DNA from: Candidatus Latescibacterota bacterium
Lineage (GTDB): Bacteria; Latescibacterota; UBA2968; GCA-2709665
Assembly: GCA_965226795.1 (NCBI GenBank)
Contig: CBDDDZ010000005.1
Coordinates: 2,976,001-3,040,000 of the forward strand
Direction of reading: 5' to 3'
Length of the DNA stretch: 64,000 nt
Below are positions 3,001 to 63,477 of this stretch, one piece after another. A program made the position numbers and the translations under genes. Positions within the stretch are counted from its first letter, which is position 1. Each line of letters starts with the position of its first letter. The notes under the pieces are model-generated. The model saw only the letters and a program-made list of their open reading frames with translations, had not been told where the DNA came from and ran no database searches.

Positions 3001-5185
3001 GCTCGTTCAGAATCTTGTCATCGGTATCCAGCTTCAGCGTACGGGTGTGGTCGCCGATCCAGATGCCGTCCGGGTCCTCATCGGTGGGGAGCACGGTGTA
3101 GGTGAAGACCAGGCTGTCGGCGCTGCTGGCGCCGGCGTCGTATGTCGCCCTTCGCCGGCTCTCTGCCTCGGTGTCGCCCGATTGGCCGAGGGAAAACTCA
3201 AACTCCGGGTCGCCGGACACGGTGACTTCCTGGTCGTAGGTGACGGCCATCTCGATGGTTTCGCCCGGCGTGTAGTAGATGTCGATGGCCGGATTCGAGG
3301 TGACCTCCACTCCGGTGATCCAGGGTCGGGCATCGACCTTGTGGGCGGAAAGTGTGTTGAGCGACCGGTGGTTGGTTCTCTGGTTCAGACCGTGCCCGTT
3401 CCGGATCGAGTCGTCCCCGTCCAGCTTGAGGGTGAGTGTGTGGTTGCCGATCCAGATGCCGTTGGGGTCCAGGTCGCCGGGGGCCACGACGTAGGTGAAG
3501 ACCAGGCTGGCGGCGCTGCTGGCGCCGGCGTCGTATGCCGCCCTTCGATCACCCGTTCCCGCGGCGGCACCCGGTGAGCTGAGCGAGAACTCGAACTCCG
3601 GGTCGCCGGACACGGTGACGACCTGGTCGTAGGTGACGGTGATCTCGATGGTTTCGCCCAGCCTGTAGACGTTGCCCGAGGCCGGACTCGAGGTGACCGC
3701 CACGCCGGTGATCCAGGGCCCGCCGTGGACCTTGTGGTTCGCCATCGTCTTCACAATGCAGTGATTCAGATCGGCGCTGCGGCCGGCGGCGTCCCGGACC
3801 GCGTCGGCGGCGTCGAGCAACAGCGTCTGAGTGCCGTCGCCGATCCAGATACCGTTGTCGTCCGCGTCGGTTGTCTGCACCGTGTAGGAGAAGACCAGGC
3901 TGGTAGTGGTGCTGCGCGCCGCGTCGTACGCCGCAGCGATCACCCGGCCTGAATTGTGGCCGGGGCCGTTGCCAAGCTTGAACCGGAACCGGGGGGTGCC
4001 GGAAACCGTCACCGGGTCCGTGAGGTTCACGGTGATCTCGATCGTCTCGCCCGAACTGTACCAGGTTCCGGCCTCCGGACTCGAGGTCACCCGGACGGGC
4101 TCCTCGACGAGGGGGATGCCATCGACCCGGTGGGGCCGCTGGTCGGCCACGGGGCCGTGGCCGAGGTCGGCGTCGGTCTGCGCGCCCTGGCGTCTGATGG
4201 TGCCGCTGAGGGCGTCAGCGGCGATGGAGACGCCGTCGTCGTCCCGGTCTCCGGCGGTCACGGTATAGGCGAAGGCCAGTTCGGTGGCGGTGCTCTCCAT
4301 CGCCTGGTAGGCGGCGTTCCGGGTGGCGGTCCCGATCGTGAGGGGCAGGACCGGGCTGCCGGACGCCGTCACGGGTTCGCTGAACGAGACCCTGGCGCTG
4401 ATCGCCTCCCCCACCTCGTAGTTGCCGTTGGCCGCCGGCGTGCTGGAAAAGTCGATGCCGTTGACGTAGGGAGGCGCGTCCGCAGCTATCGGACGCCCGT
4501 TGATTTCGATGATAAGACTCCTGTCAGTGGTTTTGCCCCAAGAGGTCCCAGGGTTTCGGAATAGAGCTTCGCCTGCGATACTCCATCCCGCGGCGCTCCC
4601 GGCGTCAACCACACCCCTATTGCTGCTGCTCGTATAGTGCCAACCAACGCCTTCGTATTTGGCCGCCGCAAGGAGGTAATAGGTCGTATTCGGCTCGAGC
4701 TTCATCGCCGGCGGCGCCTGGAAGGTCACAGGCCCATTACCGGGACTCGCCGGCGGATTCCGGAAGGTGAATCGCTCCCGGCCGGGTTGGCTGCTGCCGT
4801 CAAACAGCATGAGGGTGAATCCGTTGGGGTCGAAAGGTCCATTCAAACGGATGGACGCGGAATCGATCCGGTATCCCTGAGGGTGATCCCCGGTTGTGAA
4901 CCCCTGGGCTAACTCATCAATGGCCCCTCCGGCGAACAAATATGTAAATGACATTACCCAGTATTGGAAATTCCCGCCTGAGTCTATGTAATAGTCATGA
5001 TTACCAACCAGCATTTGAGGTTGCTGATCGCCGATCGTCAGTTGCCCGTGCGCAGGGGGCGCTGAAGAGGCGAGGACGGCCAGTGCCGCCAGGAGCGGCA
5101 GCGCCCGGAGGCGGCTGCGCGCAGGCCCGGTGGTGGATGCCGTGGGTTCGCGCCCAGCAGATTGCGGTTCTGATTCTGTTTTCAT
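1..5185 (-). CDS. Giant secreted/surface repeat protein (signal peptide, ~5 Ig-like beta-sandwich repeats, cadherin-like domain, >=7 tandem cadherin repeats); frameshifted at ~1367-1398; runs off left edge
   Basis: ORF 1331..5308 has a signal-peptide-like LPLLAALAVLASSAPPAHG, repeated YxxGETIEITVTY...DxDxDGIWIG units and ARDYExPxD...NxYEVTVKATD cadherin units; ~306-312 bp units continue to base 1 in another frame. Start at MKTESE (5185) is a best guess. Confidence 0.8.
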
Positions 5186-46481: not shown

Positions 46482-46574
46482 CCACCGAAGTGAGGGGAGA
46501 TGGGGACGGCTTTGCCGCGGTCCTTCACGACGCGGTATGGGTCGGTCCTTGTTCTGATGGAAGATTCTCGACGT
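46482..46574 (-). CRISPR. Degenerate hybrid unit: half array-2 repeat, 37-bp spacer, degenerate repeat B
   Basis: CCACCGAAGTGAGGGGAGAT (46482-46501) and TCCTTGTTCTGATGGAAGATTCTC (46546-46569). Confidence 0.7.
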
Positions 46575-46594
46575 GTCCGCCTTCGATTGTTCAT

Positions 46595-46885
46595 TTAAGC
46601 CTCTCTTGGGATGCCTGCCGCTGCTCCAAACGCCTCTTGTGCTTCCCGTATCTTGACGTCCAACAACGCCTCATGTATCTCCTCTTGTATGTCCTGCTCC
46701 GCTTGCGTAAAGACATCGGCGGACCGCCGCCGGTAAACTTCCGTTCGGAATTCTTGGTTGTCCTCCCTGATCTTGTCTTGAAAAGATTCCCCTACCGCCA
46801 CTTCCATATCCGTCGCTGTCGACGGGTTTTCTAGCACGGCATTCTTTACCGCCTGCTTCAGCATTTCTCGCCTTCGATTGCTCAT
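46595..46885 (-). CDS. Hypothetical acidic helical protein between CRISPR-like repeats
   Basis: 96-aa ORF with GGGAGG RBS; fills the interval between repeats at ~46539 and 46903. Confidence 0.65.
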   Translation of the reverse strand: MSNRRREMLKQAVKNAVLENPSTATDMEVAVGESFQDKIREDNQEFRTEVYRRRSADVFTQAEQDIQEEIHEALLDVKIREAQEAFGAAAGIPREA

Positions 46886-46902
46886 TTAAGCCCTCCCAGA
46901 TG

Positions 46903-46938
46903 GTTTAAATCCTTGTTCTGATAGAAGATCTTCACCGG
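46903..46938 (-). repeat. Solitary CRISPR-like repeat B
   Basis: GTTTAAATCCTTGTTCTGATAGAAGATCTTCACCGG. Confidence 0.85.
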
Positions 46939-46940
46939 GA

Positions 46941-47126
46941 TTAGCGGGCGCCTGGCGGCGCGTTTTTCAGCCGCTCGTTCGGCGTCGGCTTTGGCCCACA
47001 GGGCCAACTGGGAAAAGGTAGGAACCGGCAGGCCGCCTTGTAGTCGGCAGGAGCAAACGGCGTCCCGTCGGGATGCCAGCCGCGGCCGAAAATCTTTGTG
47101 TACTTTTCTTTAGGTAGGGTAGGCAT
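46941..47126 (-). pseudogene. GWHPDGTPF small protein, diverged copy with frameshift
   Basis: RGWHPDGTPFAPADYK then shifted frame GLPVPTFSQLALWAKADAERAAE; homologous to 61868-62035. Confidence 0.7.
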
Positions 47127-47129
47127 AGA

Positions 47130-47165
47130 GATTCAATCCTTGTACTGATGGAAGATTCTCGCCGG
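47130..47165 (-). repeat. Solitary CRISPR-like repeat B
   Basis: GATTCAATCCTTGTACTGATGGAAGATTCTCGCCGG. Confidence 0.85.
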
Positions 47166-47172
47166 GTTTATC

Positions 47173-47262
47173 TCAATCGAACCAATCCCAGGGCGTAAAG
47201 TATTTGATTCCAATAACCACCACAAGAATTACAGCAAGCAAGAGTATAAATCCCAAAATCAT
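47173..47262 (-). CDS. 29-aa single-TM peptide MILGFILLLAVILVVVIGIKYFTPWDWFD
   Basis: Hand translation; AGGGG upstream; fills the interval between repeats 47130 and 47288. Confidence 0.6.
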   Translation of the reverse strand: MILGFILLLAVILVVVIGIKYFTPWDWFD

Positions 47263-47287
47263 AGCGGCCCCTATATACCTGTTTTCC

Positions 47288-47323
47288 GTTTCAGCCCTTG
47301 TCCTGATGGAAAATTCCGAGCGG
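47288..47323 (-). repeat. Solitary CRISPR-like repeat B (degenerate)
   Basis: GTTTCAGCCCTTGTCCTGATGGAAAATTCCGAGCGG. Confidence 0.8.
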
Positions 47324-47348
47324 GATTGTGGTAGGGCGACGGCCGCTT

Positions 47349-47900
47349 TTATTCATCTCCTCGGATCTTGGCCAGCGCCTCGCTCGCAGCGTCTGCCATG
47401 AAATCCACAGAGTCCTTAAGATTTTCGTGTATCCATTCGAGATATCTGACCGCCCGTTGCTCTCGAAACTCACCGAGTTGCCGGATGATCGTCTCCCCCA
47501 GACCGGTGCCCAAAGGGTATCGGTCTCTGGCCATGTGCTCGAAAACGCTCACGAGCAGATTCAGCAGGTGTTGGCGAATTTCCTCCGAATCCGGTGAGGG
47601 TCTCCAGACGTAACGCGGGTTTTCCCAGGACACCCACTCGTCTGGTTGACCGGGCCGAACGCGCCGTTCCTGTTCCCAGCCGCCATGGCGCATCACCGGT
47701 CCGATGGGGATGCGATCGCGATCGGGCCGGCGATGTGGATGGTTCGCACAATAGGTGTAGAAGGGGTTCTCTATCGCGATGTCCCTGATCTCGCAATAGG
47801 GCGGTATACTCTCGTCAGCGCGCCGCAACCATTCGCGCTCGCCCCGGTTCGTTCGATTGAACCAACAGGTTCCGCAACAGTCGGATCCTCCGTTGGGCAT
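47349..47900 (-). CDS. Cys/His-rich hypothetical protein with HEAT-like C-terminus
   Basis: CCGTCWFN, YCEIR, YCANHPH; GGAGG RBS. Confidence 0.7.
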   Translation of the reverse strand: MPNGGSDCCGTCWFNRTNRGEREWLRRADESIPPYCEIRDIAIENPFYTYCANHPHRRPDRDRIPIGPVMRHGGWEQERRVRPGQPDEWVSWENPRYVWRPSPDSEEIRQHLLNLLVSVFEHMARDRYPLGTGLGETIIRQLGEFREQRAVRYLEWIHENLKDSVDFMADAASEALAKIRGDE

Positions 47901-48114
47901 CGCTCAGCCCTCCGCCCGGTTGTAACTCCGCAACCTCTCCCGCAACCGGTCATGCAGTAGCGCTCGCACCGTCACATCGTTCGGTCCAATCGAAATCCTC
48001 CGCAACGCATAACATAAAGTCCATTTGTCGCAAGTATTGCGACAACATTAAAAAAGCTATCGGCTGTTAGCGGGCAGCCGTCAGCCAGAAACAGTGAGAA
48101 AAGGAGCCGGTGTG

Positions 48115-48297
48115 AAGGTGGGGCAGACATTCCTGTCTGCCCTTATCATTGTCCTTCTGTCGCGATGCAGACAGAAGCAAGGCTTGCGCCGTCCTCTTTC
48201 CAGTGGGGAGACGGCGGCGAGTTGCGGCGTGCCCAGACACAGGATTCTGAGGTTTCGGTTTGATGTAAGTGAGCAGACAAGAATGTCTGCTCCACCC
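48115..48297. repeat. REP-like family B inverted pair
   Basis: GGTGGGGCAGACATTCCTGTCTGCCC and inverted GCAGACAAGAATGTCTGCTCCACC. Confidence 0.7.
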
Positions 48298-48480
48298 TTA
48301 CAAGCCTTTGTTCGAATTACCGCTTGAGCGCGTCAACAATCTGAGACAAAATGCCTGTACTTGCTTCCACATTCCGAAGCAGCAAGGCGCCACTGTCACC
48401 TGTGTGCCTGCGGCGAGCGATGCTGTCGGCTTTTTTCATTCCATCCTCCTCGTTGAGTAGACAGATGCAGATCCAACCGC

Positions 48481-49214
48481 TCAGAACCGTTCACGGATGG
48501 CCCAGGCCTTGATCAAGTGGTGGGCGATGGCGATGGGTCCAGGCACCGACAGAACTTTGCTCTTGCCGTCGAGGGCCAGCAGCACTTCGCGACGCTCGAA
48601 CCAGTGCGCGTCGGACATCTCCTCATTGTCTATACGAATGGCGGTGGTGACCGCTTCCGCCAGGCAGCCGATCATAAGCGAACAGGGAAACGGCCATGGC
48701 TGCGAGGAGTGGTAGCGTACGTTCTTCACCCCGATACCCGCTTCCTCCATCACTTCGCGCGCCACCACCTCCTCGATCGCTTCCCCCTGATCGACGAAAC
48801 CGGCCAGGGCGGAGTACATGCGCAGCCGCGAAAGGCGACCGTGCGACTGCCCGAGCAGGCAACGGTCGGTGGCGGGGTCCCGGCGGTACGGCAATCCTCG
48901 AAACGCCAGCCCCGACCGTCCGCAACCCGGGCGGCTGCCTCGGGGAAGGGGGACATGTCTACGGCGAAGTGCGCGACCGCGTCCATCAACCCGAGGAAAA
49001 TCGGCTTCGCTCCGGTCGCAAAGGTCCGGATCCGTTGCGTGTGCAGCCAACCAAGCCGCGGTCGCAGGCAGTCGTCGATCAACACTTCGAGATCCCGGAA
49101 GGGCAGGAACCTGCTGCCGGCGGCGGTTTCGGCGCGATGGATCCAGGCTTCGTCCCGACGTTCGCGTTCGGCACGGTCGAGAGGATTGCCGGCGAATGGA
49201 TGCTGGGCATTCAT
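48481..49214 (-). pseudogene. nudC: NAD(H) pyrophosphatase with internal deletion/frameshift
   Basis: N-terminal FAGNPLDRA; Nudix box AGFVDQGEAIEEVVAREVMEEAG and SQPWPFP in another frame; zinc-ribbon region absent. Confidence 0.75.
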
Positions 49215-49407
49215 GGATTGCGGTTACCGTAGCAGGCCGACGGGATGTAGACGGGGGAGTATCCGCACCTTAGCCGGTACTCTATCACGTGCAACTTCGG
49301 CGGCGCTGGATCACCATCCGGATGTCCAGCGCACCGCCGACCTGATGCGTCAACGTGAATGCAAACAGCCGGATATATCCCGCGTACTTTAGTCAGTTGC
49401 TGTTCCA

Positions 49408-50283
49408 TCAGGTGTCGAACAGGCTGTGCAGCCATGTATCGGCCTCTGGAATGCCGTCGGCGTTAAACACGAACTCCTGGCCGGGGCTGGCGCTCTTGAC
49501 GTAGGCCCACGGACCGTAGCGCTGCCACTGTTTTTTGCGATGATAGCTAAGCATTGGCTGCCCGTCGACGCGACAGAACCAGCGTGGCAGTCTCCAATAC
49601 GACCGGCTGCTCGCTCCGGGTGCGGTCAACATGACTCGGTCATTGGCACCTGAAAAAAGGCCGCCTCCGTTCGTTCGAGTTTCCGTTCCGCCGATGTTGA
49701 GTGTCCGGGTCGCAACGTAAACCGTGTTGTTCGGCGGCCATGATCGTCCATTGGGATGCAAAGGGTTGACGTGGGGATGGTCAGACAGCCAGGGCCGGAC
49801 TGTGCGGGCGCCGGCCGTATCGGTACCCACAGTAACGACCTCGGCCACCTGGAGCCAACCGAATAACCGGTGCACATCAGGAGCGTTCGATGCGTACTGC
49901 CATGTGCCCCCCTTCGCCGGTTCCGCGGCGCGAAACCAACCAAAGAATAGAAAGAGGTCGCCGGGCCCAACACCCTGGTTTTTCAGATGGCGTTGAGCGG
50001 TCTCGGCCTGCCCGAACGCCGCCAGCCAGCCGGGCGAACGCACAAGGGCATTGGCATTCAAATCGGGATCCAGATGACACCGGTCTCGTCCTTTCACTTC
50101 GCCGTTGGTCAAACACTCCACAATTTGGCCGAGAGACGTGTTACGCCACCGAACGTCATTGAATCGCGTCGGACTTCCGGGGTACGGAATCGGTAGGGAC
50201 AGGGCAGTGCCGTCGGGAAAAATGGGGCTTGGCTTGCCGCCATACTTCGCATCGAAACCCTTGCGGCTGAAGACAATCTTCAT
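49408..50283 (-). CDS. Nucleotide modification associated domain 3 (Nmad3)-like protein
   Basis: SRKGFD..GG.PSPIFPDG..SLPIP, HLDPDL, GDLFLFFGWF, HPH, GQEFV. Confidence 0.75.
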   Translation of the reverse strand: MKIVFSRKGFDAKYGGKPSPIFPDGTALSLPIPYPGSPTRFNDVRWRNTSLGQIVECLTNGEVKGRDRCHLDPDLNANALVRSPGWLAAFGQAETAQRHLKNQGVGPGDLFLFFGWFRAAEPAKGGTWQYASNAPDVHRLFGWLQVAEVVTVGTDTAGARTVRPWLSDHPHVNPLHPNGRSWPPNNTVYVATRTLNIGGTETRTNGGGLFSGANDRVMLTAPGASSRSYWRLPRWFCRVDGQPMLSYHRKKQWQRYGPWAYVKSASPGQEFVFNADGIPEADTWLHSLFDT

Positions 50284-50456
50284 TGGTACTCTTCCTCCAT
50301 TGGTCCGGTCAGGTTACCCAAGCTTACAGCAAAGAGAAAGAACCGGCAAGGTCAACGATAACATTCTTGCCAAGGTCCCCAGCAAGTCGTGGGGCGCAAT
50401 TCGGGCAACAGTCCACGCATCCTAAAGCGTTTCATCGATGTAAACGCTCATGACGG

Positions 50457-50492
50457 GTTTCAATCCTTGTTCTGGTGGAAGATTCCCAGCGG
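50457..50492 (-). repeat. Solitary CRISPR-like repeat B
   Basis: GTTTCAATCCTTGTTCTGGTGGAAGATTCCCAGCGG. Confidence 0.88.
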
Positions 50493-50686
50493 GTTAGGCG
50501 CAACGAATGTGACAGGAGCATGTCGGTCTGGAGGTGTCGAATTGCATAGCAACTTCTGTCCATCGGGAGTCAGAAAATCGCGTCGAGGACGAAATCTACC
50601 CACCACTGCCCACCCGGATCAGCGAGGCTGGAGCAGAGACTTGGGTCTCAAAAGCGATCCGACGGGTTGTTTGTTCGATGATACTC

Positions 50687-51750
50687 TTAACGCTCGTCCG
50701 TCCTGCGTTTAAGTTCGTCGGCAATCCAATCGGCAGCATCGTGACGATTCATGCCAGCGAAGACACATCGAACAGGGAGATTGTAACCTGTTTCTTTTCT
50801 CACATCTCGTATTCTTACACCGTTGTCATCGGACACGATTGTTTCCCAAACGACCTTCACATGGTACTCACGCTCCTGTCCGAAAACGGTTGTGCCAGAG
50901 ATGACTTGGCCGTCAACGATCCTCCCGGCCGCCAATACACCTTTTTTGTTGACATAAGCAAAGACCCGCTGGTCTTCAGCACTTCCTGACAGATTAGTTG
51001 CACCCGTCTCATAGCCGTGAATGGCAATTACCCCCTGATCAAACATCTTGCGATACGCATTTGGGGCGTAGGTTTCGTTCGTATTGAAGATCCAATCGCC
51101 CTGCCACTTTTCTGCCGAAACGTCCTCTCCTTGCGACTGAATCTTTGGCAATGGCGCGATGTCCATCAGGATTTCTGCATCATCGGAATTTGCGTGGAGC
51201 GTGAATGGCACGAAGTTTATCGGCACACCGTATTCATGAAGCCATTTGACTATCCTCAACAAACCCTCATCAGACGCCGGAGCGACGATAATAATCCGGT
51301 GGCCTTGTTGCGCTTTTGGAATGTCCTTCTGATTAAATTCAGGATCGTCGGTTAGCTCTTGAATCCTTTCTAGCAAGGGGACATATGGGCTTCCGCCATG
51401 GCGTAGGGGCCAGTATTCTCGGTCCAGTTTTCTAGATCTTCATAGCTCTTTCCGGTCATTTCAGCAGCATATTCGAGCAGTTGGCCTACCGTCGCTCTAT
51501 CGGACCAGTCCCGCTTTATTTCGACGATGACCAAACGCCCGTCAGCGTCCAACGCCAAAATGTCTCCCATGCGTTTACCGGCAACGGACTGACCAATCAC
51601 CAGAATCTTCTCGGCACCAAACAGTAGATCGGGGTTCCGCGCCATCCAGTTTTCCAGGTTCTTTTCTGTAAGATTCAACTTTGACGCGGGCCGTTCTTCA
51701 TATGATTGAACCGCGGTCTCTTCTCCGTCGCGGATTAGCTTAAATAGCAT
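50687..51750 (-). pseudogene. NucS/DUF91-like PD-(D/E)xK nuclease with C-terminal domain, split by frameshift near 51400
   Basis: EKNLENW, DILALDADGRLVIVEIKR, GQLLEYAA; continuation RIIIVA in ORF 50687..51376. Confidence 0.65.
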
Positions 51751-52078
51751 CGGTGTCCCCTCCATCGGTACGGTTCACCCTCACGCCATATGGGAAACAC
51801 ACAGTCATGCCGCGTATCCGTACGCCGCACAAAGGTTGGATCCCTGTGCGGGTGGGGAAAGACCGGCCAAGCACGGGCGCCGACGTCGTCCGGTCCGCTC
51901 TCCCGACCCAAGTGAGGTGAGATGCTTTTTCCCCGATCACTCTGCGGCGTATCCAAGTGTCGAAAAATGCGACGCGAGCTAACACACCAGCTCGTCGGCG
52001 AACGCATCTTCGATGTCCCGCGTCAACTGCAATCTTGCACACATCGGGCCTTTCACGGCGAGGATTCAAAGGTCCTGA

Positions 52079-53413
52079 TCAGTCTCTACCCGCGTTACTC
52101 TGCAGCGTCTTGTCAATCATCGTGGAGAACACCTGTTGAAACTGCTCGCAGATTTCAGATCGAGCCAGGTTTTGCAGGGGAAAACTCGGACGCCCCTTCA
52201 GACACCTGTCCAAAGTCACGTCGTCAATCCGGCACAAATCAGACCAGAGTTCTTTGCGAGCATTCTCTGTATGGAATGGGGCGACCATGTATTGGAATTG
52301 GACGACCACGCGGTCAGCCTTTATGCTGAAGGTCCACTGCAACAATTCCTTACCGTCTGCCAATGGCAATCTGTCGAGTTGGAACCAGATCTCCGGCGGA
52401 TCGGTATTGCGCGTCGGCATTCGGTTGAAATACGCGACCCTGCGGCCCGATCCTTCGAGTTCGACGTGTTTCCGGTGCGCCCACGCAATCAGTTCCTCGG
52501 CAATTCGAGCACACTCGCAGCCGGCACGGACCCCCAACTCATGCACAAATGAATCCGGATCGACAACCATGCCGCCCTTGAGTGGGGGGACTCGAAACTC
52601 GGCAATGAGAGGCGCGTGGTCGCTCCGGGTGCCCATGACGTTGTGATCGACTCGCAGCCGCGTGCACCGATGCGCGAGTTCCTCCGTGGCATACAGCCAA
52701 TCCAGCTGTGTGCCCGGGTTGCCGCCGAACGTTCGCACGTGGCGGCAGTCGCCGGCACCGCATGGACAATCCGGCATGGTGTCCGGACGATCCTCTGCGA
52801 TGGTAGCGAGATTGACGAGCCCGAGTGATTCGATGGCGCAGAACAGGGCGCGGTATCGAGGCAGTTCGAGCGTGTCAGGACGAGTTGCAGTTGTAATATT
52901 GAAGTCGCCACCCAGAATGACGCGCCTGCCGTCACCCGAGTCAAACAGCGGAATCAGGTCGGCGATAACACGGAACATCCTTGTTTGCGCATAGCCGTCA
53001 TCCATCGCGCCATACACACTCACACAGGTGATAGGGCCGACTTCAGGCACGTGGATTCTAGCAACAATCACGGAACCCGGAAGGCTTCCCAGCATGCTGA
53101 ACCTCGTGGCGCCGTATCGTGTACGTACGGCATCGATCTCCTCTGTTTCCAGGTCACAGGCGAACGCCACAACCGACGATCCCCAGGGCCGCCGGCCTGC
53201 GATCTCGCGGTATACGAAACGGTTACGGGGGATGTCAGACGGAGCAACGCTTTCCTGGAGCAGCATGACGTCAGCCTTCCTCTCCGTTTGAAGGTAACGC
53301 CATGCGTCCTTGCGCTGCTGCGAAGTCCGCTTCCAGTGATCCATGTTCCATGTGCCGATAGACAGGTTTCGCACAACTGGTGTTGAACAGGTCTTCCGGT
53401 CGCCTGCGGTCAT
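52079..53413 (-). CDS. Endonuclease/exonuclease/phosphatase (EEP) family protein with extra C-terminal domain
   Basis: TWNM, LQE, GGDFN, LDW, SDHAP. Confidence 0.85.
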   Translation of the reverse strand: MTAGDRKTCSTPVVRNLSIGTWNMDHWKRTSQQRKDAWRYLQTERKADVMLLQESVAPSDIPRNRFVYREIAGRRPWGSSVVAFACDLETEEIDAVRTRYGATRFSMLGSLPGSVIVARIHVPEVGPITCVSVYGAMDDGYAQTRMFRVIADLIPLFDSGDGRRVILGGDFNITTATRPDTLELPRYRALFCAIESLGLVNLATIAEDRPDTMPDCPCGAGDCRHVRTFGGNPGTQLDWLYATEELAHRCTRLRVDHNVMGTRSDHAPLIAEFRVPPLKGGMVVDPDSFVHELGVRAGCECARIAEELIAWAHRKHVELEGSGRRVAYFNRMPTRNTDPPEIWFQLDRLPLADGKELLQWTFSIKADRVVVQFQYMVAPFHTENARKELWSDLCRIDDVTLDRCLKGRPSFPLQNLARSEICEQFQQVFSTMIDKTLQSNAGRD

Positions 53414-53706
53414 TCAATTCCTCCACTTCGGTCGAGGCATTCTGCAATAGACGGGGCTGTCTTTCGGATCCTCACAGGCCAAATTCCGGTGAATGCATTT
53501 CGGGTTTACTTTCGCTGCCCGCGGACCTGATGTCGGTCCGAAACCGCACGTTTGCCAGGCCAGGAACCTGTGTTCTTACGAATCGCCGCGTCGAACTGAA
53601 TCGCCGTAAAGTATCCGGAGTGCAGGTGCGAAATGTACCTACCGTTTGCCAAACAAAGTGCTGTCAAACCCTCACGAGAGTGCTAAATGGTCCCCGCGGT
53701 CTGCAA

Positions 53707-53815
53707 GTTTCAATCCTCTCCCCCCACCAAAGTGAGGGGAGATTTTCAGAAACAGTTGTCGCCAATCCGTGTAATCTCTGTTTCAATCCTTGTTCTGATG
53801 GAAGATTCCCGACGG
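53707..53815 (-). CRISPR. Hybrid mini-array: array-2-type repeat, 36-bp spacer, repeat B
   Basis: GTTTCAATCCTCTCCCCCCACCAAAGTGAGGGGAGAT (53707-53743); GTTTCAATCCTTGTTCTGATGGAAGATTCCCGACGG (53780-53815). Confidence 0.85.
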
Positions 53816-53897
53816 TGTGTGGAGCGCGAGCGAGGCACTGCTGTTCTGTGGGGTGTGTCTCATGTACGGTTACGACGCGGGGACCCACTATCCTCGG

Positions 53898-54980
53898 TTA
53901 GGCCAGGTTGGCAACGCGGCGCTCGGCGGCGGCGATGTCGGCGGCGCCGTCGAGCACGGTGATCTCCAGGTGGAACTCGCGTGTGGCGCCGGGTTCCAGG
54001 TACTCCAGGGAGTCGTGCCTGCGGTTCCAGGCGCGCCCGAGGGGCGAGCAGTTGCCTGGCTCCACGCCGGTCACGTAGCCGGCGGCGGCGAAGTGCTGCC
54101 ACTGAGTGACCAGCGGCAGCTCGGCAGCCGGCATGCGCCACTGCAGGCCGTACGCCAGCCGGTCGTTGATCAACGCAACGGTCACGTTGCCGTTGGCGTC
54201 CGGCACCGGCCGGTGCACGTATACGTCGTCGCCGGCGCCCGGCTCCGGGGCACGCGCCCGCTCGTACGCTGCGGCATCGACCGGGCGGTCCTGCAGCCAC
54301 TCGGTGCTGAGTTGGCTGTTGACCAGGAACCGGGTACCCTCGTCGAGCAGGGGGAAGCCGGGATTGGTGTGGTACAGCAGCATCAACGGCGAGCGCAACC
54401 CGCCGAGGTTCTCCACTCGGTCGTGGATGCTGATGCGGCGCTCGCCCAACGTAGTGGTGATTTCGCGGCGCAGCTCGAGCGTCGTGCCAAGTGCCACCGC
54501 TTCGCGCATGGTGCCGGCGATGCGCAGGTGGTATTCGTCTCCCTGCCAGCTTCCGCCGGCGCTCACGTCGCGCGCCGGGATGGCCGACAGCCGCCCGTGC
54601 AGGCCCAGTTCCTCGCCTTCCTCCTCCGGGTCGGTTTCGGGATGGCCGACGAAGGTCAGGCCGCAACTGATCAGCAGGCCGCCGAAGAAACTGCGCATCC
54701 AGCCGTAACCGGCGGGCTCGAAGAATGCCGGTCCGACGTCGCCGGTGGCGCTGCGGAAACACAGCGACCGCCCCTGGTAGGTGGCGGCGGCGATGTCCAG
54801 CGCCCGTCCGGGCAGTACCGAGAAGCTCAGCCCGGAGGCGTTGCTCACCTCGATCAATCCGGCGCCGCGCTCGTTGCCCTCGGTCAGCTCGGCGCGGCGA
54901 ACGGCGGCGAGCTGGCTCATATCGCCGACCAACCGCAGCAGCTCCGCCTTCGTGTAGTCGCGTCCAAACAGGTGTGCCAT
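53898..54980 (-). CDS. DUF4432 / aldose-1-epimerase-like protein
   Basis: VLPGRALDI, FFGGLLISCGL, LHGRLS, DRVEN, LYHTNPGFPLL, GVEPGN. Confidence 0.85.
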   Translation of the reverse strand: MAHLFGRDYTKAELLRLVGDMSQLAAVRRAELTEGNERGAGLIEVSNASGLSFSVLPGRALDIAAATYQGRSLCFRSATGDVGPAFFEPAGYGWMRSFFGGLLISCGLTFVGHPETDPEEEGEELGLHGRLSAIPARDVSAGGSWQGDEYHLRIAGTMREAVALGTTLELRREITTTLGERRISIHDRVENLGGLRSPLMLLYHTNPGFPLLDEGTRFLVNSQLSTEWLQDRPVDAAAYERARAPEPGAGDDVYVHRPVPDANGNVTVALINDRLAYGLQWRMPAAELPLVTQWQHFAAAGYVTGVEPGNCSPLGRAWNRRHDSLEYLEPGATREFHLEITVLDGAADIAAAERRVANLA

Positions 54981-55067
54981 GCTCGCTCTCTCCTCTCGTG
55001 GACGGGGCGGCACCCGGCCAGCGGTCGTGCCAGCGGATGTCGCTGCCGATGCCGCCGGTAGGGCCGA

Positions 55068-55235
55068 TCACCCGCCCCATAATCGCCGCGCCGTTACGCC
55101 GGGTGGCTCGCCGGGGGCAACGTGAGCGCGGCCGATCTGTGCTACCGAGGTACAGCCGATGAGCGCCATGGTGCGGCTCATCTCCTCGGCCAGCAGGCTT
55201 ACCTCGTAGCCGACCCCCGCTTCACCGCCGGCGCC
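55068..55235 (-). pseudogene. 3' fragment of FMN-dependent alpha-hydroxy-acid oxidase/dehydrogenase
   Basis: GAGGEAGVGYEVSLLAEEMSRTMALIGCTSVAQI begins at the first base after repeat 55236. Confidence 0.7.
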
Positions 55236-55271
55236 GTTTCAATCCTTGTTCTGATGGAAGATTCTCACCGG
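55236..55271 (-). repeat. Solitary CRISPR-like repeat B
   Basis: GTTTCAATCCTTGTTCTGATGGAAGATTCTCACCGG. Confidence 0.92.
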
Positions 55272-55450
55272 GTTATCGCGCTCGGCGTTCGGCGGCTCGT
55301 TCGGCATCGGACTCAGCCCAAAACGCCAGCTGAGCGGGGGTGGGGACGGGCAGGCCTGCCTCGCGGTAGTCCTTAGGGGGCAAAAGGCGTCCCGTCGGGG
55401 TGCCACGACTGTGAGAAGGTGTCGGAGTGCTTGTTGGGTGTTTTTGTCAT
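55272..55450 (-). pseudogene. GWHPDGTPF small protein copy, +1 frameshift in a G run
   Basis: MTKTPNKHSDTFSQSWHPDGTPFAP-stop; G5 at 55376-55380 versus G4 in the intact copy. Confidence 0.7.
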
Positions 55451-55455
55451 ACGCA

Positions 55456-58400
55456 GTTTCAATCCTTGTTCTGATGGAAGGGTTCTGACCGGCCGCGGGG
55501 AAGGCGCTCGTTTGGCTATACCCCCAAAACTGTTTCAATCCTTGTTCTGATGGAAGTGTTTCGACCGGAAAAAATCCGAGAGCACCGGAGACAACCGGGG
55601 TTTCAGTTTCAATCCTTGTTCTGATGGAAGTGTTTCGACCGGCTGCCACCCGAGCCTACCGATCCGCCAATACCCGTAACGTTTCAATCCTTGTTCTGAT
55701 GGAAGTGTTTCAACCGGTATATCATACTGGGTCTGGAACAACAACATGGATACCTAGTTTCAATCCTTGTTCTGATGGAAGTGTTTCGACCGGCCTGATC
55801 GCCAGGACACACAAAGACGTCGAGAATCGAGTTTCAATCCTTGTTCTGATGGAAGTGTTTCGACCGGAACCACACCTGCGCGCCGTCCTTGCGGATGGTA
55901 GGGTGTTTCAATCCTTGTTCTGATGGAAGTGTTTCGACCGGAAAAACGACCAGTTGCCTAGATGCTTGGCGCTGATGCGTTTCAATCCTTGTTCTGATGG
56001 AAGTGTTTCGACCGGCCGCGGCGGCCACCGGTGGAAGATAGACCGGTACTTCGGTTTCAATCCTTGTTCTGATGGAAGTGTTTCGACCGGGATTGTGACT
56101 TTTTTGATCGCTCCTGAAGGACAATGTTTCAATCCTTGTTCTGATGGAAGTGTTTCGACCGGTCAATTACTTCATGGCAGTCACAACAAACGACTGGGGT
56201 TTCAATCCTTGTTCTGATGGAAGTGTTTCGACCGGTAACATCTGAGATTTTCTCAGTGTTCCCTCATGTTCGTGTTTCAATCCTTGTTCTGATGGAAGTG
56301 TTTCGACCGGCCAAGCAGCCAGATCATGAGGTCTCCTCTTTCAGATGGTTTCAATCCTTGTTCTGATGGAAGTGTTTCGACCGGCAGCGAGCCCACCGCG
56401 CACCACTGCACGGCGGTGGTACTGTTTCAATCCTTGTTCTGATGGAAGTGTTTCGACCGGTAATCCCCCTTGAAATGCTTCACCTGGGCCTGTAAGGTTT
56501 CAATCCTTGTTCTGATGGAAGTGTTTCGACCGGCCAACCAGTCTATTGTCGTGGGCTCGTCGGGGTCCACGTTTCAATCCTTGTTCTGATGGAAGTGTTT
56601 CGACCGGACGGTGGGCAAGCGCAAGGAAGCGCCGGAAAAGATGTTTCAATCCTTGTTCTGATGGAAGTGTTTCGACCGGTGGTGTCTACTTCGGTTAGGG
56701 TGCCGGTGGTCATCTGGTTTCAATCCTTGTTCTGATGGAAGTGTTTCGACCGGTGCACATCGGCAAGCTTCGCGGCGTTGGCCTGTGAGTTTCAATCCTT
56801 GTTCTGATGGAAGTGTTTCGACCGGCCACCAGAATAGTTGCCCGGCCTTTATCGTCTCGAGAGTTTCAATCCTTGTTCTGATGGAAGTGTTTCGACCGGC
56901 CAGTCTTTCTTGTTCGCAATTAGAACACGGGCTTTTTCGTTTCAATCCTTGTTCTGATGGAAGTGTTTCGACCGGAAAGATCCGTATTGAGTTTGGGCCG
57001 CGGTCGGAAAAGTTTCAATCCTTGTTCTGATGGAAGTGTTTCGACCGGCAAGCTGCAACTCAACTCTTGTCGCTTCGTCCAAAATGTTTCAATCCTTGTT
57101 CTGATGGAAGTGTTTCGACCGGGGTTTTCCGGGGTACAACGACTGACGTCCGGCCGGCCGGTTTCAATCCTTGTTCTGATGGAAGTGTTTCGACCGGGAT
57201 CGAATCTCGATATCTTATAGTCACCGGCCGCTTCAGTTTCAATCCTTGTTCTGATGGAAGTGTTTCGACCGGTGACGATGGAGATTTGCGTAAAGATTTA
57301 AGACATTTCAGTTTCAATCCTTGTTCTGATGGAAGTGTTTCGACCGGTGGGTTCCGGTACTTCGGATATCCGGAGAAGTTGGCTGTTTCAATCCTTGTTC
57401 TGATGGAAGTGTTTCGACCGGCGTGTGGGCCAGCATAACCACGCTTGCCCGGAGTATATGTTTCAATCCTTGTTCTGATGGAAGTGTTTCGACCGGCCTT
57501 GCCGCGCTGGTGTCTATGGTGGCGGCATTTCCATGTTTCAATCCTTGTTCTGATGGAAGTGTTTCGACCGGCGTTGCAAGGCTTTTATTGCCGGGTGTTG
57601 AACCCTCTGTTTCAATCCTTGTTCTGATGGAAGTGTTTCGACCGGCGTAGAAACTTCTTGGCCCACGCCTCATCTTCCCTGCGTTTCAATCCTTGTTCTG
57701 ATGGAAGTGTTTCGACCGGCAGATACACCTATGAACATAGACAAGTAGAGATTACAGTTTCAATCCTTGTTCTGATGGAAGTGTTTCGACCGGTATTAGC
57801 CTCTTGGGCTGCGATGAAGCTATTCTTGTTTCAATCCTTGTTCTGATGGAAGTGTTTCGACCGGGCTGCTGCAGCTATTCTTATACTATCTAGCGGGAAA
57901 AGGTTTCAATCCTTGTTCTGATGGAAGTGTTTCGACCGGTATCATGGCAGACTCACAGCGAGCGGCGAAATATTGTTTCAATCCTTGTTCTGATGGAAGT
58001 GTTTCGACCGGGAACTTTTGGAAAAAGCCGGGGGTAAGGTTGGAATTGTGTTTCAATCCTTGTTCTGATGGAAGTGTTTCGACCGGTCCGGATGGTACTG
58101 GCGGGAACCAGGTTTTGTTTGCCAGTTTCAATCCTTGTTCTGATGGAAGTGTTTCGACCGGCCCGCCGGCAGGGCGTCGTCGGTAGTGATGAGAAGCCCG
58201 TTTCAATCCTTGTTCTGATGGAAGTGTTTCAACCGGAAAATGGCTTGTGCGGCCTTTCGATATTTATATCGTGTTTCAATCCTTGTTCTGATGGAAGTGT
58301 TTCGACCGGAGGGCGGCTCGTGACGTCGATATTTATCTGGGGTGGCTGTTTCAATCCTTGTTCTGATGGAAGTGTTTCGACCGGCCTTGCCGACATTCTC

Positions 58401-61056
58401 GAATGGAGCATTGATATAGTCGTTTCAATCCTTGTTCTGATGGAAGTGTTTCGACCGGTCGCCTAAGCCGGTTTGCGTCTGCAAAAACTCATTACGGTTT
58501 CAATCCTTGTTCTGATGGAAGTGTTTCGACCGGTTAGCCTCCAGCGCCAAATACTCCTCACGAAGATCCGAGTTTCAATCCTTGTTCTGATGGAAGTGTT
58601 TCGACCGGCCGGTTGTGCTCGCGTAGCTGCGCCCGTGATGTGATGGTTTCAATCCTTGTTCTGATGGAAGTGTTTCGACCGGCCCGAAACAAAGAGGCCG
58701 TCACGTTCGCGCGGCTGGTGTTTCAATCCTTGTTCTGATGGAAGTGTTTCGACCGGAGGATGCCGTTGGCCTTTGAAGGCCACTTGGTATCCCGTTTCAA
58801 TCCTTGTTCTGATGGAAGTGTTTCGACCGGCGTGGGGTGTGCGTTTCGCTCCAACAAGCCATATCTGTTTCAATCCTTGTTCTGATGGAAGTGTTTCGAC
58901 CGGCCCCCACCTCACGCACGAGGAAGCCTAAGAAGAAATAGTTTCAATCCTTGTTCTGATGGAAGTGTTTCGACCGGCGGGCTCATGTCTGTATGGCCTG
59001 CGACGGATCAGGTCGTTTCAATCCTTGTTCTGATGGAAGTGTTTCGACCGGAAATTCCCACGCACTCGTTTCCCGGTGCTCATTTTGGTTTCAATCCTTG
59101 TTCTGATGGAAGTGTTTCGACCGGTGATCTAAAGAAATTGCAGGATCAGGTTGCGGCGAAGGAGTTTCAATCCTTGTTCTGATGGAAGTGTTTCGACCGG
59201 GTGCGAAGACAGAACCTCCCAATACCCTACTTGGTGTTTCAATCCTTGTTCTGATGGAAGTGTTTCGACCGGCGGGGAAAAAAGTTAAATGAAATTCCGT
59301 TTGTATTTATGTTTCAATCCTTGTTCTGATGGAAGTGTTTCGACCGGTCGTAACGTGACGGATGCGATATCAATCAAATTGATTAGTTTCAATCCTTGTT
59401 CTGATGGAAGTGTTTCGACCGGTGCACACGGAACGGCTGACGCTTCAGGCTGAACGGAGTTTCAATCCTTGTTCTGATGGAAGTGTTTCGACCGGCGCTG
59501 CAGACGTTCCCGGCTTCAGCGTCGTAGATGATGTTTCAATCCTTGTTCTGATGGAAGTGTTTCGACCGGCGCAAGGGCCATGCCTCGCCGCCCAATAGCG
59601 TGAAAGTTTCAATCCTTGTTCTGATGGAAGTGTTTCGACCGGTCATTGAAAAATTGCACCAAGTCGGGCGTCTGGTCGTGTTTCAATCCTTGTTCTGATG
59701 GAAGTGTTTCGACCGGTGAACACTGGCATGGCGCTTCAGCTTTACCACGAATTGTTTCAATCCTTGTTCTGATGGAAGTGTTTCGACCGGGCCGGAGCCG
59801 GGGGTTTTTTATGCCTCTAATCCCCCGGTTTCAATCCTTGTTCTGATGGAAGTGTTTCGACCGGAGAACCTTGAAATACGCATCAGCTACTGGGTATGGA
59901 AGTTTCAATCCTTGTTCTGATGGAAGTGTTTCGACCGGTCTGGGTGGCACGGGTAATCTCAGGGCGGTCTGGAAGGGGTTTCAATCCTTGTTCTGATGGA
60001 AGTGTTTCGACCGGCCGCATAGATGCCCGCCTGAAGGCTCCCGAACAATGTTTCAATCCTTGTTCTGATGGAAGTGTTTCGACCGGAAATGAAACAACAC
60101 GCAACATGGATCAGTATAATAAAAGTTTCAATCCTTGTTCTGATGGAAGTGTTTCGACCGGTTGTCTCTGTCGGCCCGTTCGTTCTTCAGGTCCTCTTTC
60201 TGTTTCAATCCTTGTTCTGATGGAAGTGTTTCGACCGGTCTGCCAAATTTCGTCTGCATGAAACTTGTCCTCCTAAGAGTTTCAATCCTTGTTCTGATGG
60301 AAGTGTTTCGACCGGGAAACAATCAAACTCACAAGGGAAGTAGACAATGACGTTTCAATCCTTGTTCTGATGGAAGTGTTTCGACCGGGGGGGTGTAAAT
60401 GGAACACTGGGAGGGCGACGAATGAGTTTCAATCCTTGTTCTGATGGAAGTGTTTCGACCGGCAACGTTCGCGCCTCCGCAAAGATCCCTACCGTACGGG
60501 TTTCAATCCTTGTTCTGATGGAAGTGTTTCGACCGGACGTTTCGGGAAGCAGGCGTTAGGACTACCTGAATAAGTTTCAATCCTTGTTCTGATGGAAGTG
60601 TTTCGACCGGTTTCGGGAACGGCAACGCCGGCAACTGTTACGTTTACGTTTCAATCCTTGTTCTGATGGAAGTGTTTCGACCGGTGGCCTGACCATGCAT
60701 TTGAAATGCTCGCCACTCGATGTTTCAATCCTTGTTCTGATGGAAGTGTTTCGACCGGTTATCATGATAGGCTTGCGCCGTTTCCTCAGCTTTTGGGTTT
60801 CAATCCTTGTTCTGATGGAAGTGTTTCGACCGGCTTCCTTTTTTTCTTACGTGATACGTTGGGGTACCGGTGTTTCAATCCTTGTTCTGATGGAAGTGTT
60901 TCGACCGGTACTTAAATCTCAAAGGTATCATCCTATCTCCCCAAAGTTTCAATCCTTGTTCTGATGGAAGTGTTTCGACCGGCACGGGTTTTGGTAGATC
61001 TTGAAGTTGTCCATATGGTGTTTCAATCCTTGTTCTGATGGAAGTGTTTCGACCGG
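55456..61056 (-). CRISPR. CRISPR array 1: 76 repeats (hand count) of 37 bp with ~35-40 bp spacers
   Basis: Repeat GTTTCAATCCTTGTTCTGATGGAAGTGTTTCGACCGG; ends ATTGAAAC on minus strand; degenerate repeat at 55456 marks the trailer; class 1 (type III/I-B-like) style. Confidence 0.99.
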
Positions 61057-61634
61057 CCGAGGTTCTCCACTCGGTCGTGGATGCTGATGCGGCGCTCGCC
61101 CAGCGTAGTGGTGATTTCGCGGCGTAGCTCGAGGGTGGTGCCAAGTGCCACCGCCTCGCGCATGGTGCCGGCGATGCGCAGGCGGTATTGGTCTCCCTGC
61201 CAGCTTCCGCCGGCGCTCACGTCGCGCGCCGGGATGGCGGACAGTCGCCCGTGCAGGCCCAGTTCCTCGCCTTCCTCCTCCGGATCGGTCTCGGGATGGC
61301 CGACGAAGGTCAGGCCGCAACTGATCAGCAGGCCGCCGAAGAAACTGCGCATCCAGCCGTAACCGGCAGGCTCGAAGAATGCCGGGCCGACGTCGCCGGT
61401 GGCGCTGCGGAAACACAGCGACCGCCCCTGGTAGGTGGCGGCAGCGATGTCGAGCGCCCGTCCGGGCAGCACCGAGAAGCTCAGTCCGGAGGCGTTGCTT
61501 ACCTCGATCAATCCGGCGCCGCGCTCGTTGCCCTCGGTCAGCTCCGCACGGCGAACGGCGGCGAGCTGGCTCATGTCGCCGACCAACCGCAGCAGCTCCG
61601 CCTTCGTGTAGTCGCGTCCAAACAGATGCGCCAT
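61057..61634 (-). pseudogene. Second DUF4432 copy truncated at the terminal repeat of array 1
   Basis: Near-identical to 54403-54980; ends at DRVENLG and runs into the repeat. Confidence 0.9.
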
Positions 61635-61830
61635 GCTCGCTCTCTCCTCTCGTGGACGGGGCGGCACCCGCCCCATTGTCGCCGCGCCGTTACGCCGGGT
61701 GGCTCGCCGGGGCAACGTGAGCGCGGCCGATCTGTGCTACCGAGGTACAGCCGATGAGCGCCATGGTGCGGCTTATCTCCTCGGCCAGCAGGCTTACCTC
61801 GTAGCCGACCCCCGCTTCACCGCCGGCGCC

Positions 61831-61866
61831 GTTTCAATCCTTGTTCTGATGGAAGATTCTCACCGG
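61831..61866 (-). repeat. Solitary CRISPR-like repeat B
   Basis: Identical to 55236-55271. Confidence 0.92.
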
Positions 61867-61867
61867 G

Positions 61868-62035
61868 TTATCGCGTTCGGCGTTCGGCGGCCTGTTCGGC
61901 ATCGGACTCAGCCCAAAACGCCAGCTGAGCGGGGGTGGGGACGGGCAGGCCTGCCTCGCGGTAGTCCTTAGGGGCAAAAGGCGTCCCGTCGGGGTGCCAA
62001 CCTCGGCAGAAAGTATCTGAGTGCTTGTTGGGCAT
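61868..62035 (-). CDS. 55-aa protein MPNKHSDTFCRGWHPDGTPFAPKDYREAGLPVPTPAQLAFWAESDAEQAAERRTR
   Basis: Hand translation; below ORF-track cutoff; fills the interval between array 2 and repeat B; two homologues in the window. Confidence 0.7.
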   Translation of the reverse strand: MPNKHSDTFCRGWHPDGTPFAPKDYREAGLPVPTPAQLAFWAESDAEQAAERRTR

Positions 62036-62054
62036 ACACATAATATTCGAAATG

Positions 62055-63477
62055 GTTTCAATCCGCTCCCCCCACCGAAGTGAGGGGAGATCTACCAGTC
62101 AGAGACGCTTTACCAGATGTCATGGGCGTTTCAATCCGCTCCCCCCACCGAAGTGAGGGGAGATCTACCACGTCGACATCAGATCGAAAGCTGTTTTCCT
62201 GTTTCAATCCGCTCCCCCCACCGGAGTGAGGGGAGATCGACGTCTCGGAATCGACGCTGTCGACCTCATACGTGTTTCAATCCGCTCCCCCCACCGGAGT
62301 GAGGGGAGATGTACCCAGTCCCACGCTGTCGTCAGCCACCCTATGTTTCAATCCGCTCCCCCCACCGGAGTGAGGGGAGATGTTGTTTTTGCAGGGCCAG
62401 GACACCCTTGTTATCATTGTTTCAATCCGCTCCCCCCACCGGAGTGAGGGGAGATTCAGCGCACCCCACGACCCGGTAAAATTTCTTACGAGTTTCAATC
62501 CGCTCCCCCCACCGGAGTGAGGGGAGATCACAGGATGATGCCGCCAGGCGCTTTGTAAGCGACGTTTCAATCCGCTCCCCCCACCGGAGTGAGGGGAGAT
62601 CCTTCGGGGCCGCCGATTTGCCGGCTGCGAGTGTCGGGTTTCAATCCGCTCCCCCCACCGGAGTGAGGGGAGATACAGGAAGGGCCCGGGCAAATTGGCA
62701 GGTGGGCATTGTTTCAATCCGCTCCCCCCACCGGAGTGAGGGGAGATCCCCTGGGCGCACTGGCAACAGCGGCGGTGGCTATAACGTTTCAATCCGCTCC
62801 CCCCACCGGAGTGAGGGGAGATTTGCCGAACAACCAGGGTTCCCCCGATCCCCAACAAGTTTCAATCCGCTCCCCCCACCGGAGTGAGGGGAGATCTATA
62901 CGCAGCATTTTCACGTCAGGATGTGCTTTTGTGTTTCAATCCGCTCCCCCCACCGGAGTGAGGGGAGATGGGCTCCCGTACCGTTTCCCGGCCCGCCGTT
63001 TGGGTTTCAATCCGCTCCCCCCACCGGAGTGATGGGAGATGCAGATTTCGTTACGGGGGCCGGTATCTCTTTCAGGGTTTCAATCCGCTCCCCCCACCGG
63101 AGTGAGGGGAGATCAACATATATATAGCTGTTTGCGCCGGGAACACCGCGTTTCAATCCGCTCCCCCCACCGGAGTGAGGGGAGATCTGCCGGGTCCATG
63201 TTGGGTCGTTTGTCGCTTCCAGCAAGTTTCAATCCGCTCCCCCCACCGGAGTGAGGGGAGATCAGGGACGCCGCGCCTACAAGCGCCACGCCATCAGTTT
63301 CAATCCGCTCCCCCCACCGGAGTGAGGGGAGATGTTTCGCTACCCCCCAACCCAAGCTCACCCTCTATGGTTTCAATCCGCTCCCCCCACCGGAGTGAGG
63401 GGAGATAAGTGTCTACAAACGTATTGCGGCGGAGTTCTCTGTTTCAATCCGCTCCCCCCACCGGAGTGAGGGGAGAT
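62055..63477 (-). CRISPR. CRISPR array 2: 20 repeats of 37 bp, probably type I-C
   Basis: Repeat GTTTCAATCCGCTCCCCCCACCGGAGTGAGGGGAGAT with strong hairpin; two variant repeats at the left (trailer) end. Confidence 0.98.

Follow-up and report, generated by a model that had tools for sequence, protein, structure and literature searches.

A segment of 1,419 bp between two repeats of a CRISPR locus in Latescibacterota is an eroded fragment of a Spirochaetia chromosome. It is cut mid-gene at both ends, in an oxidase gene at the 5′ end and in the remnant of an MFS transporter gene at the 3′ end, and its boundaries coincide with those of the repeats exactly at the 5′ end and within 2 nt at the 3′ end. 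The only intact gene inside it encodes a DUF4432 protein. It is likely that the Cas machinery captured this piece and gave the host a new gene.

Organization of the locus and the insert

The genome studied (G000; other genomes are denoted G0xx, loci Lxxx and runs Xn) comprises 5.41 Mb with a mean GC content of 0.583. The window, i.e. the whole stretch of 64,000 nt analyzed here, corresponds to G000:C5:2976001-3040000. Read along the minus strand, the locus begins with a type I-C-like cas operon (cas5, cas8c, cas7, cas3, cas4, cas1; C5:3041685-3049320) and a cas2 gene split by IS1380; the genes next to the array are cas genes and IS1380. Next come array A and a small ORF, then a B′ repeat with a shortened insert copy of 774 bp behind it, the leaderless array B, a second small ORF, a further B′ repeat and the 1,419-bp insert, which now lies at the trailer end of the locus. 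Behind it come another B′ repeat, one 36-nt spacer, a solitary A repeat, and a nuclease gene and other genes with five B′ repeats between them. All 84 B-family repeats of the genome are found within this locus. The features in window coordinates are as follows:

62055..63477, minus strand: array A with its 20 repeats, which goes with the type I-C-like cas operon lying just outside the window
61831..61867, minus strand: B′ repeat preceding the second insert copy
61057..61830, minus strand: second insert copy, truncated, with the same 5′ junction; cut at about codon 193 of DUF4432 by array B
55456..61056, minus strand: array B, 76 repeats and 75 spacers of 34-40 nt, without leader; protospacer PAM TTG/TCG
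55273..55455, minus strand: ORF of about 60 codons of the WHxDGTP family, repeat-bounded, frameshifted at this copy
55236..55272, minus strand: upstream repeat of the B′ kind, a 37-nt variant within the type I-B family
53817..55235, minus strand: giant spacer, the eroded Spirochaetia chromosomal fragment of 1,419 bp (donor L057, 4810 to about 7481)
55101..55235, minus strand: 3′ tail of an FMN-dependent alpha-hydroxy-acid dehydrogenase, donor residues 361-405 of 406, abutting the repeat
55038..55080, minus strand: 5′ remnant of the dephospho-CoA kinase gene (coaE), interrupted by the loss of about 950 bp inside the insert
55019..55045, minus strand: 3′ remnant of the donor cupin gene
53898..54980, minus strand: intact gene for the DUF4432 protein (360 aa; E 9e-91), with relatives that bear the name aldose 1-epimerase family
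53819..53879, plus strand: remnant from the interior of the MFS transporter gene, which is convergent in the donor, stopping 2 nt short of the repeat
53780..53816, minus strand: downstream B′ repeat variant, same sequence in G065, G008 and G013
53707..53779, minus strand: ordinary 36-nt spacer and solitary A-type repeat
46539..50493, minus strand: five more solitary B′ repeats (starts 50493, 47324, 47166, 46939 and 46575)

On the minus strand, the upstream repeat (55272-55236) finishes ATTGAAAC, and the insert opens with GAGGEAGV...EEMSRTMALIGCTSV at the very next base. This bears out the initial annotation, which had described a fragment starting mid-gene exactly at a repeat boundary, with an oxidase tail devoid of a start followed by a complete DUF4432 gene: the tail begins at the first base after the repeat and matches positions 311-349 of the 350 positions of Pfam FMN_dh (E 1.6e-7), and the DUF4432 gene runs from 54980 to 53898. 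That the segment is closed by another repeat B stands insofar as a repeat is present at 53816-53780, but both flanking repeats are B′ variants and not the array-B repeat. They are arranged in direct orientation, one per side, and are identical to each other at 33 of 37 positions (4/37 differ); each is 2 nt away from one variant in G011. The suspected GC-richness was borne out as well, with a GC content of 0.697 against 0.583 for the genome, a value reached by only 4 of 10,808 genome windows of the same size (0.04%). At its 3′ end, the MFS tail aligns to the donor with a score of 59, compared with a maximum of 39 among 500 shuffles. The length of the insert, 1,419 bp now and about 2.67 kb at capture (see below), is outside the spacer norm, as 75 of the 75 ordinary array-B spacers measure 34-40 nt. 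On account of this length, the insert is not filed as an ordinary spacer, though it works like one.

Several other elements of the window deserve mention. The B′ repeats at 46539..50493 delimit co-oriented gene segments with Nmad3, a Spirochaetia-like NudC gene and small ORFs. The NudC gene (48479-49236) is internally deleted and 74-87% identical to Spirochaetia sequences, and it represents a second spirochaete-derived gene; it does not count as a replicate capture, since no repeat of G000 directly abuts it. ORFs of the WHxDGTP...DY.KAG.PVPT family (about 60 aa) occur in nine genomes, at L042, L044, L045, L047, L052 and other loci; in the window there are copies at 55273-55455, 61868-62054 (beside the truncated insert copy) and 46940-47129. 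Their ATG often lies 3-6 nt past a B repeat, the AAGGA of which could serve as ribosome-binding site. The family had no match in Pfam, Atlas or viral contigs, and the B′ repeat was absent from the viral contigs searched. The gene of a NucS/PDC-S11-like nuclease (50690-51765) is represented by two ORFs here and by a single 421-aa ORF in the G001 homolog. Window positions 1-4300 hold a large repetitive coding region with units of 306 nt and 393 nt.

Spirochaete origin and later fate of the insert

Among 57 DUF4432 loci compared, those that come closest outside the genus of the host belong to Spirochaetia (93%, 88% and 86%). The search for an intact donor operon, proposed in the initial annotation, led to another phylum: locus L057 of the Spirochaetia genome G061 (GC 0.70) carries intact FMN_dh, coaE, cupin and DUF4432 genes and a convergent MFS gene, and the matching donor interval holds only these five. 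The insert is 90-92% identical to this locus (90% from the 5′ junction, 92% over DUF4432), and the donor genomes in hand are thus relatives at this level and not the donor itself. The alignment begins at the first base past the upstream repeat (L057 4810, oxidase codon 361), continues to the start of coaE, jumps about 950 bp to the end of the cupin gene, passes through DUF4432, jumps about 340 bp into the MFS gene and ends inside the latter at about L057 7481, 2 nt ahead of the downstream repeat. Judged from this path, the captured piece originally measured about 2.67 kb and has lost two internal stretches since.

The gene order oxidase-coaE-cupin-MFS is also kept in the Spirochaetia genomes G068, G070 and G071 (among 41 genomes centred on G061), and only G061 of the 41 genomes searched has DUF4432 within this run. 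In a tree of 16 rows, the eight cassette copies of DUF4432 form a clade that is sister to G061 and nested in Spirochaetia with a support of 100/100. Of the 15 genomes of the host genus, five carry the cassette-type gene, in every case behind a repeat; the remaining ten have only a DUF4432 paralog at 30-33%. The nested position in the tree, together with this restricted occurrence behind repeats, shows that the transfer went from a spirochaete to Latescibacterota.

Two other origins of the arrangement were considered. Either the array had inserted into a resident operon, in which case the rest of the oxidase gene should lie beyond the CRISPR locus as the initial annotation had pointed out, or an IS element or composite transposon had delivered the piece, with IS ends at its boundaries. 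IS elements are indeed common in the trailer regions and in the cas operon. However, no other part of the oxidase exists anywhere in G000 (best other matches 31-33% identity), and coaE, cupin and MFS match only paralogs at 30-50% identity; insertion of the array into a resident operon is thereby excluded. The cassette-type DUF4432 is missing from 10 of the 15 genus genomes, the insert has no terminal inverted repeats (its ends match at 7/20), and neither the insert nor the matching donor interval contains a transposase. We consider such an origin very improbable and rejected it on the missing ortholog remainder, the genomes without the gene and the missing inverted repeats.

Recipient-type and donor-type contigs occur together in the runs X1, X3 and X9, the last of which is labelled sponge metagenome; the loose ends of the donor-type contigs in these runs lead on into donor sequence. 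This co-residence could favour an assembly chimera of two genomes. Against this, eight diverged copies in six genomes have junctions and deletions in common while diverging mostly at synonymous positions; a chimera is hardly credible in view of this and was discarded. As a side observation, locus L053 (G065), on a contig titled Tectimicrobiota, has a 98% DUF4432 locus with the same repeats and neighbours as the window and is 96% identical to the window across 2.6 kb, repeats included. Mis-binning of a contig with this type of locus is the probable explanation, a further cross-phylum transfer being the less likely one.

Each of the eight copies of the cassette in the six genomes is located behind a repeat. 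The dN/dS values of DUF4432 (0.03-0.24 in the 28 pairs of the eight copies) correspond to purifying selection, and the gene remains intact while the passenger fragments decay: the oxidase tail is shortened in G008, interrupted by a stop codon in the second copy of the window, and lost in G007 and G003. The exact 5′ junction is found in five of the eight copies (once with a single base change) and the exact 3′ junction in four of the seven full-length copies; in G013, the repeat in front of the copy is of the A type, and 5-10 bases differ. Alleles with an empty site were not encountered for the focal insert. The sequences beyond the downstream repeat differ in G000, G008 and G013, as do those before the upstream repeat, which indicates that neighbours change at repeat ends. 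The two copies of the window have diverged with a dS of 0.156, and on this ground they would represent a join of the loci of two lineages rather than a fresh duplication. In run X5, a joint in a single contig leaves out 50488-53778 (shorter side of 30 letters, 88% likeness) and gives a hint, though only that, of a repeat-to-repeat deletion.

The break site and routes of capture

The initial annotation had proposed to look for a PAM-like motif at the donor breakpoint. Among 15 aligned orthologs, the trinucleotide just 5′ of the break is TTG in two, namely L156 and L057, the latter being the one closest to the insert; the other 13 have CTG or CTC. A donor-type contig in run X1 has TTG at the break too, with a different preceding codon (GGTTTG). 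The donor TTG was read before the PAM of array B was measured. For this measurement, contigs of four runs were matched to spacers, and 10 spacers are among the matches listed. The PAM-side flank is visible for four of these 10 matched spacers:

57646-57682: spacer with TCG protospacer
60611-60647: spacer with TTG protospacer
59348-59385: spacer with TTG protospacer
58459-58496: spacer with TTG protospacer, the TTG following three unaligned bases

The TTG at the break fits these array-B motifs, as a match that stems from one capture event and compares the insert, flanked by the B′ variant, with a PAM measured on its sister, the array-B repeat variant. Given per-position background values in L057 of 0.007 for TTG and 0.025-0.029 for TCG, the chance of either standing at the break of this one event is about 0.03. 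TTG also appears as a type I-B PAM in Table 1 of PMC8482600. Searches for further targets gave no match to phages with array B and no match to plasmids with the insert, and 355 spacers compared with G000 and the retrieved loci revealed no protospacer. In 44 genomes including seven Spirochaetia, array B found weak repeat-like matches only, none of them convincing in Spirochaetia.

The B-type arrays of G003, G010 and G015 adjoin cas1, cas2 and cas4, and two of these genomes, G003 and G010, have identifiable I-B interference genes (cas6b, cas8b, cas7). The CRISPR loci of G010, G007, G008 and G013 occupy the same chromosomal site as that of G000. As G000 itself has only the I-C cas1, a broken cas2 and no Cas6b, the capture predates this genome. 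The IS1380 element splits its cas2 at L002:661-2667 (C5:3039661-3041667), so that the uptake of new spacers in G000 is probably off. In addition, type I-C (G000, G008, G013) and I-B (G010) cas operons swap at one chromosomal site across the genus, and G003 has a second I-B form at a putatively equivalent site; as a result of the swapping, A and B repeats stand intermixed in the trailer regions (L002, L035, L038, L041, L043).

On balance, we lean towards the reading that the insert is an over-long prespacer of about 2.67 kb, integrated once by a type I-B Cas4-Cas1-Cas2 complex. DNA of a co-resident spirochaete, a scenario supported by the identity of the donor and its occurrence in the same runs, would have entered the cell. 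One end would have been trimmed directly behind the TTG PAM, presumably by Cas4, and the two ends joined on either side of one repeat, which would thereby have been duplicated; this last step is suggested by the flush ends and the two related flanking repeats. The insert then drifted to the trailer end; as the copies document, deletions removed coaE and cupin together with the greater part of the MFS and oxidase pieces, and DUF4432 was selectively kept. Finally, the transfer of the cassette from lineage to lineage, its duplication and its truncation may be due to recombination at repeats; the changed neighbours at repeat ends are observed, and recombination would be the mechanism behind them. 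In this way, the proposal that a kb-size piece of a metabolic operon integrated at repeats is supported, with the amendments that the piece had about 2.67 kb at capture rather than 1.4 kb and that the enzyme is a deduction. Spacer integration leaves behind flush ends, a PAM confined to the PAM-proximal side and a pair of related repeats at the flanks, as apparently here, but not an insert of this length. No published demonstration of kilobase integration by Cas1-Cas2 was found in the literature.

A flush 5′ end and the TTG would equally result if an ordinary 37-nt spacer had been acquired from the spirochaete and homologous recombination at this spacer had then pulled in 2.6 kb, the far end being joined illegitimately at the next repeat. 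This course, which does not stretch the length ruler of Cas1-Cas2, is unlikely in our estimation, albeit the strongest of the rivals, and recombination between spacer and target is described as promoting gene transfer in the part of PMC8616872 that cites Watson 2018 and Varble 2019. It requires, however, that the 3′ end reached the repeat boundary by luck, and the insert in G011 ends flush in mid-gene too. A double crossover between two spacers predicts TTG/TCG 34-40 nt inside the 3′ end, and this is absent in L057 and in the window; L057 has only a TCA, at 40 nt. The lack of a convincing array-B spacer match in the seven Spirochaetia genomes likewise speaks against it.

The sequence before the break provides counter-evidence to capture of a prespacer, since GGATTG in L057 equals repeat positions 28-33 and fits a microhomology route. 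A host or phage recombinase, or microhomology repair, might have used this shared core in the manner of a prophage that takes a repeat as its attachment site. GGATTG is present at the break in both L057 and L156, and prophage integration into CRISPR repeats is on record (10.1101/2020.10.09.333658). Nevertheless, a crossover in GGATTG would delete the last four bases of the repeat, yet AAAC stands at the junction; the donor-type allele of run X1 keeps the TTG but not the hexamer; no such core exists at the 3′ end; and neither insert nor donor interval holds an integrase or att-like site. We therefore regard this route as improbable.

Other repeat-bounded segments and relation to known systems

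On the trailer side, ten regions from nine relatives (G007 in part) contain dispersed B and A repeats which bound segments of 100 bp to 12 kb. Of 128 heuristically called ORFs in the relatives and G000, 103 are co-oriented with the array, a count that includes shared cassettes. Many of the genes are of defence type (Nmad3, GmrSD/HEC-05, ZacB-ZacC, PDC-S11 and EEP nucleases). Some segments are plainly IS-borne, so that giant spacers need not account for every repeat-bounded segment.

For two GC-rich segments, composition and junctions suggest additional captures. The first (G011 C34:282910-283713; 804 bp, GC 0.69) lies between repeats identical at 36/37 positions and ends flush, within the remnant of a convergent gene that extends to the codon adjoining the repeat; the remnant matches Pfam positions 197-228 of 242 with an E-value of 8e-4, which is under the curated cut-off. 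The second, an asparagine-synthase segment in G008 (C1:3867122 onward), has its start directly behind a B′ repeat. In both cases the closest protein with a label is from Gemmatimonadetes (89% and 91%, respectively), and each segment is present in 1 of 167 host-phylum genomes. A search of 25 Spirochaetia-centred genomes gave no donor for these two or for the metH segment of G003 (best 70%). For the G008 insert, 5+5 other genomes, a phylum of 33 genomes and the 167 genomes of the host phylum returned only itself or distant homologs. The G003 segment (L040:2650-10511; 7.9 kb, GC 0.66) is situated between B repeats and comprises an intact B12-dependent methionine synthase gene and an MTHFR-like gene.

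Tentatively, and with more doubt than confidence, we put forward a wider view in which the CRISPR locus of these symbiotic Latescibacterota doubles as a gene-capture organ. Type I-B Cas4-Cas1-Cas2 would repeatedly integrate kilobase, PAM-trimmed chromosome fragments of neighbouring phyla (Spirochaetota, Gemmatimonadota) as giant spacers, selection would keep the useful genes, and recombination at repeats would build an integron-like cassette array in the trailer.

In the prevailing view, adaptation admits only short pieces whose length is set by a ruler, and CRISPR mostly acts to bar gene transfer. The natural insert described here, about 70 times as long as normal, combines an apparent PAM footprint, an origin from the chromosome of another phylum and a gene kept by selection in several species. 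No description of natural gene-sized spacers with donor and PAM was found in the literature covered, mostly freely accessible papers. If Cas4-Cas1-Cas2 did it, the array offers a homology-free route to cross-phylum gene gain, and the systems of G003, G010 and G015 become candidates for natural integrases capable of site-specific kilobase insertion. Even if recombination was responsible, the locus documents at sequence level how a CRISPR array seeded the horizontal acquisition of a gene.

In integrons, co-oriented gene segments are found between short repeated sites (attC) and are shuffled there; a cassette consists of one whole ORF with an attC hairpin behind it, and the integron integrase and attI adjoin the array. 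The trailer array resembles this in having co-oriented, repeat-shuffled segments, many of them defence-related, whereas its sites are CRISPR repeats and not attC, and its passengers are truncated with mid-gene ends on both sides.

With type I-B adaptation, the insert shares the position of foreign DNA between two repeats, the apparent exclusion of a probable 5′ PAM from the array and the cas1-cas2-cas4 genes that adjoin B arrays in relatives. Cas1-Cas2 integrates spacers at the leader-proximal repeat, and spacers are processed into guide RNAs; the insert is now at the trailer end, and G000 has no Cas6b. It differs in its length of about 2.67 kb compared with 34-40 nt for spacers here (36-38 bp are given for Pyrococcus in PMC5737086), in its source, the chromosome of another phylum, and in its kept product, which is a protein gene and not a guide. 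The prophage phiAP1.1 of Streptococcus pyogenes (10.1101/2020.10.09.333658), as portrayed there, likewise places large DNA in a CRISPR repeat; the present insert, in contrast, has no phage genes, integrase or attP, and its ends are arbitrary mid-gene positions beside a probable PAM. Casposons, according to the account in PMC6977970, are similar in that a Cas1-family enzyme integrates long DNA and duplicates the target, but the insert has neither a casposase nor terminal inverted repeats, and its duplication is a 37-nt CRISPR repeat instead of a 14-15 bp target site.
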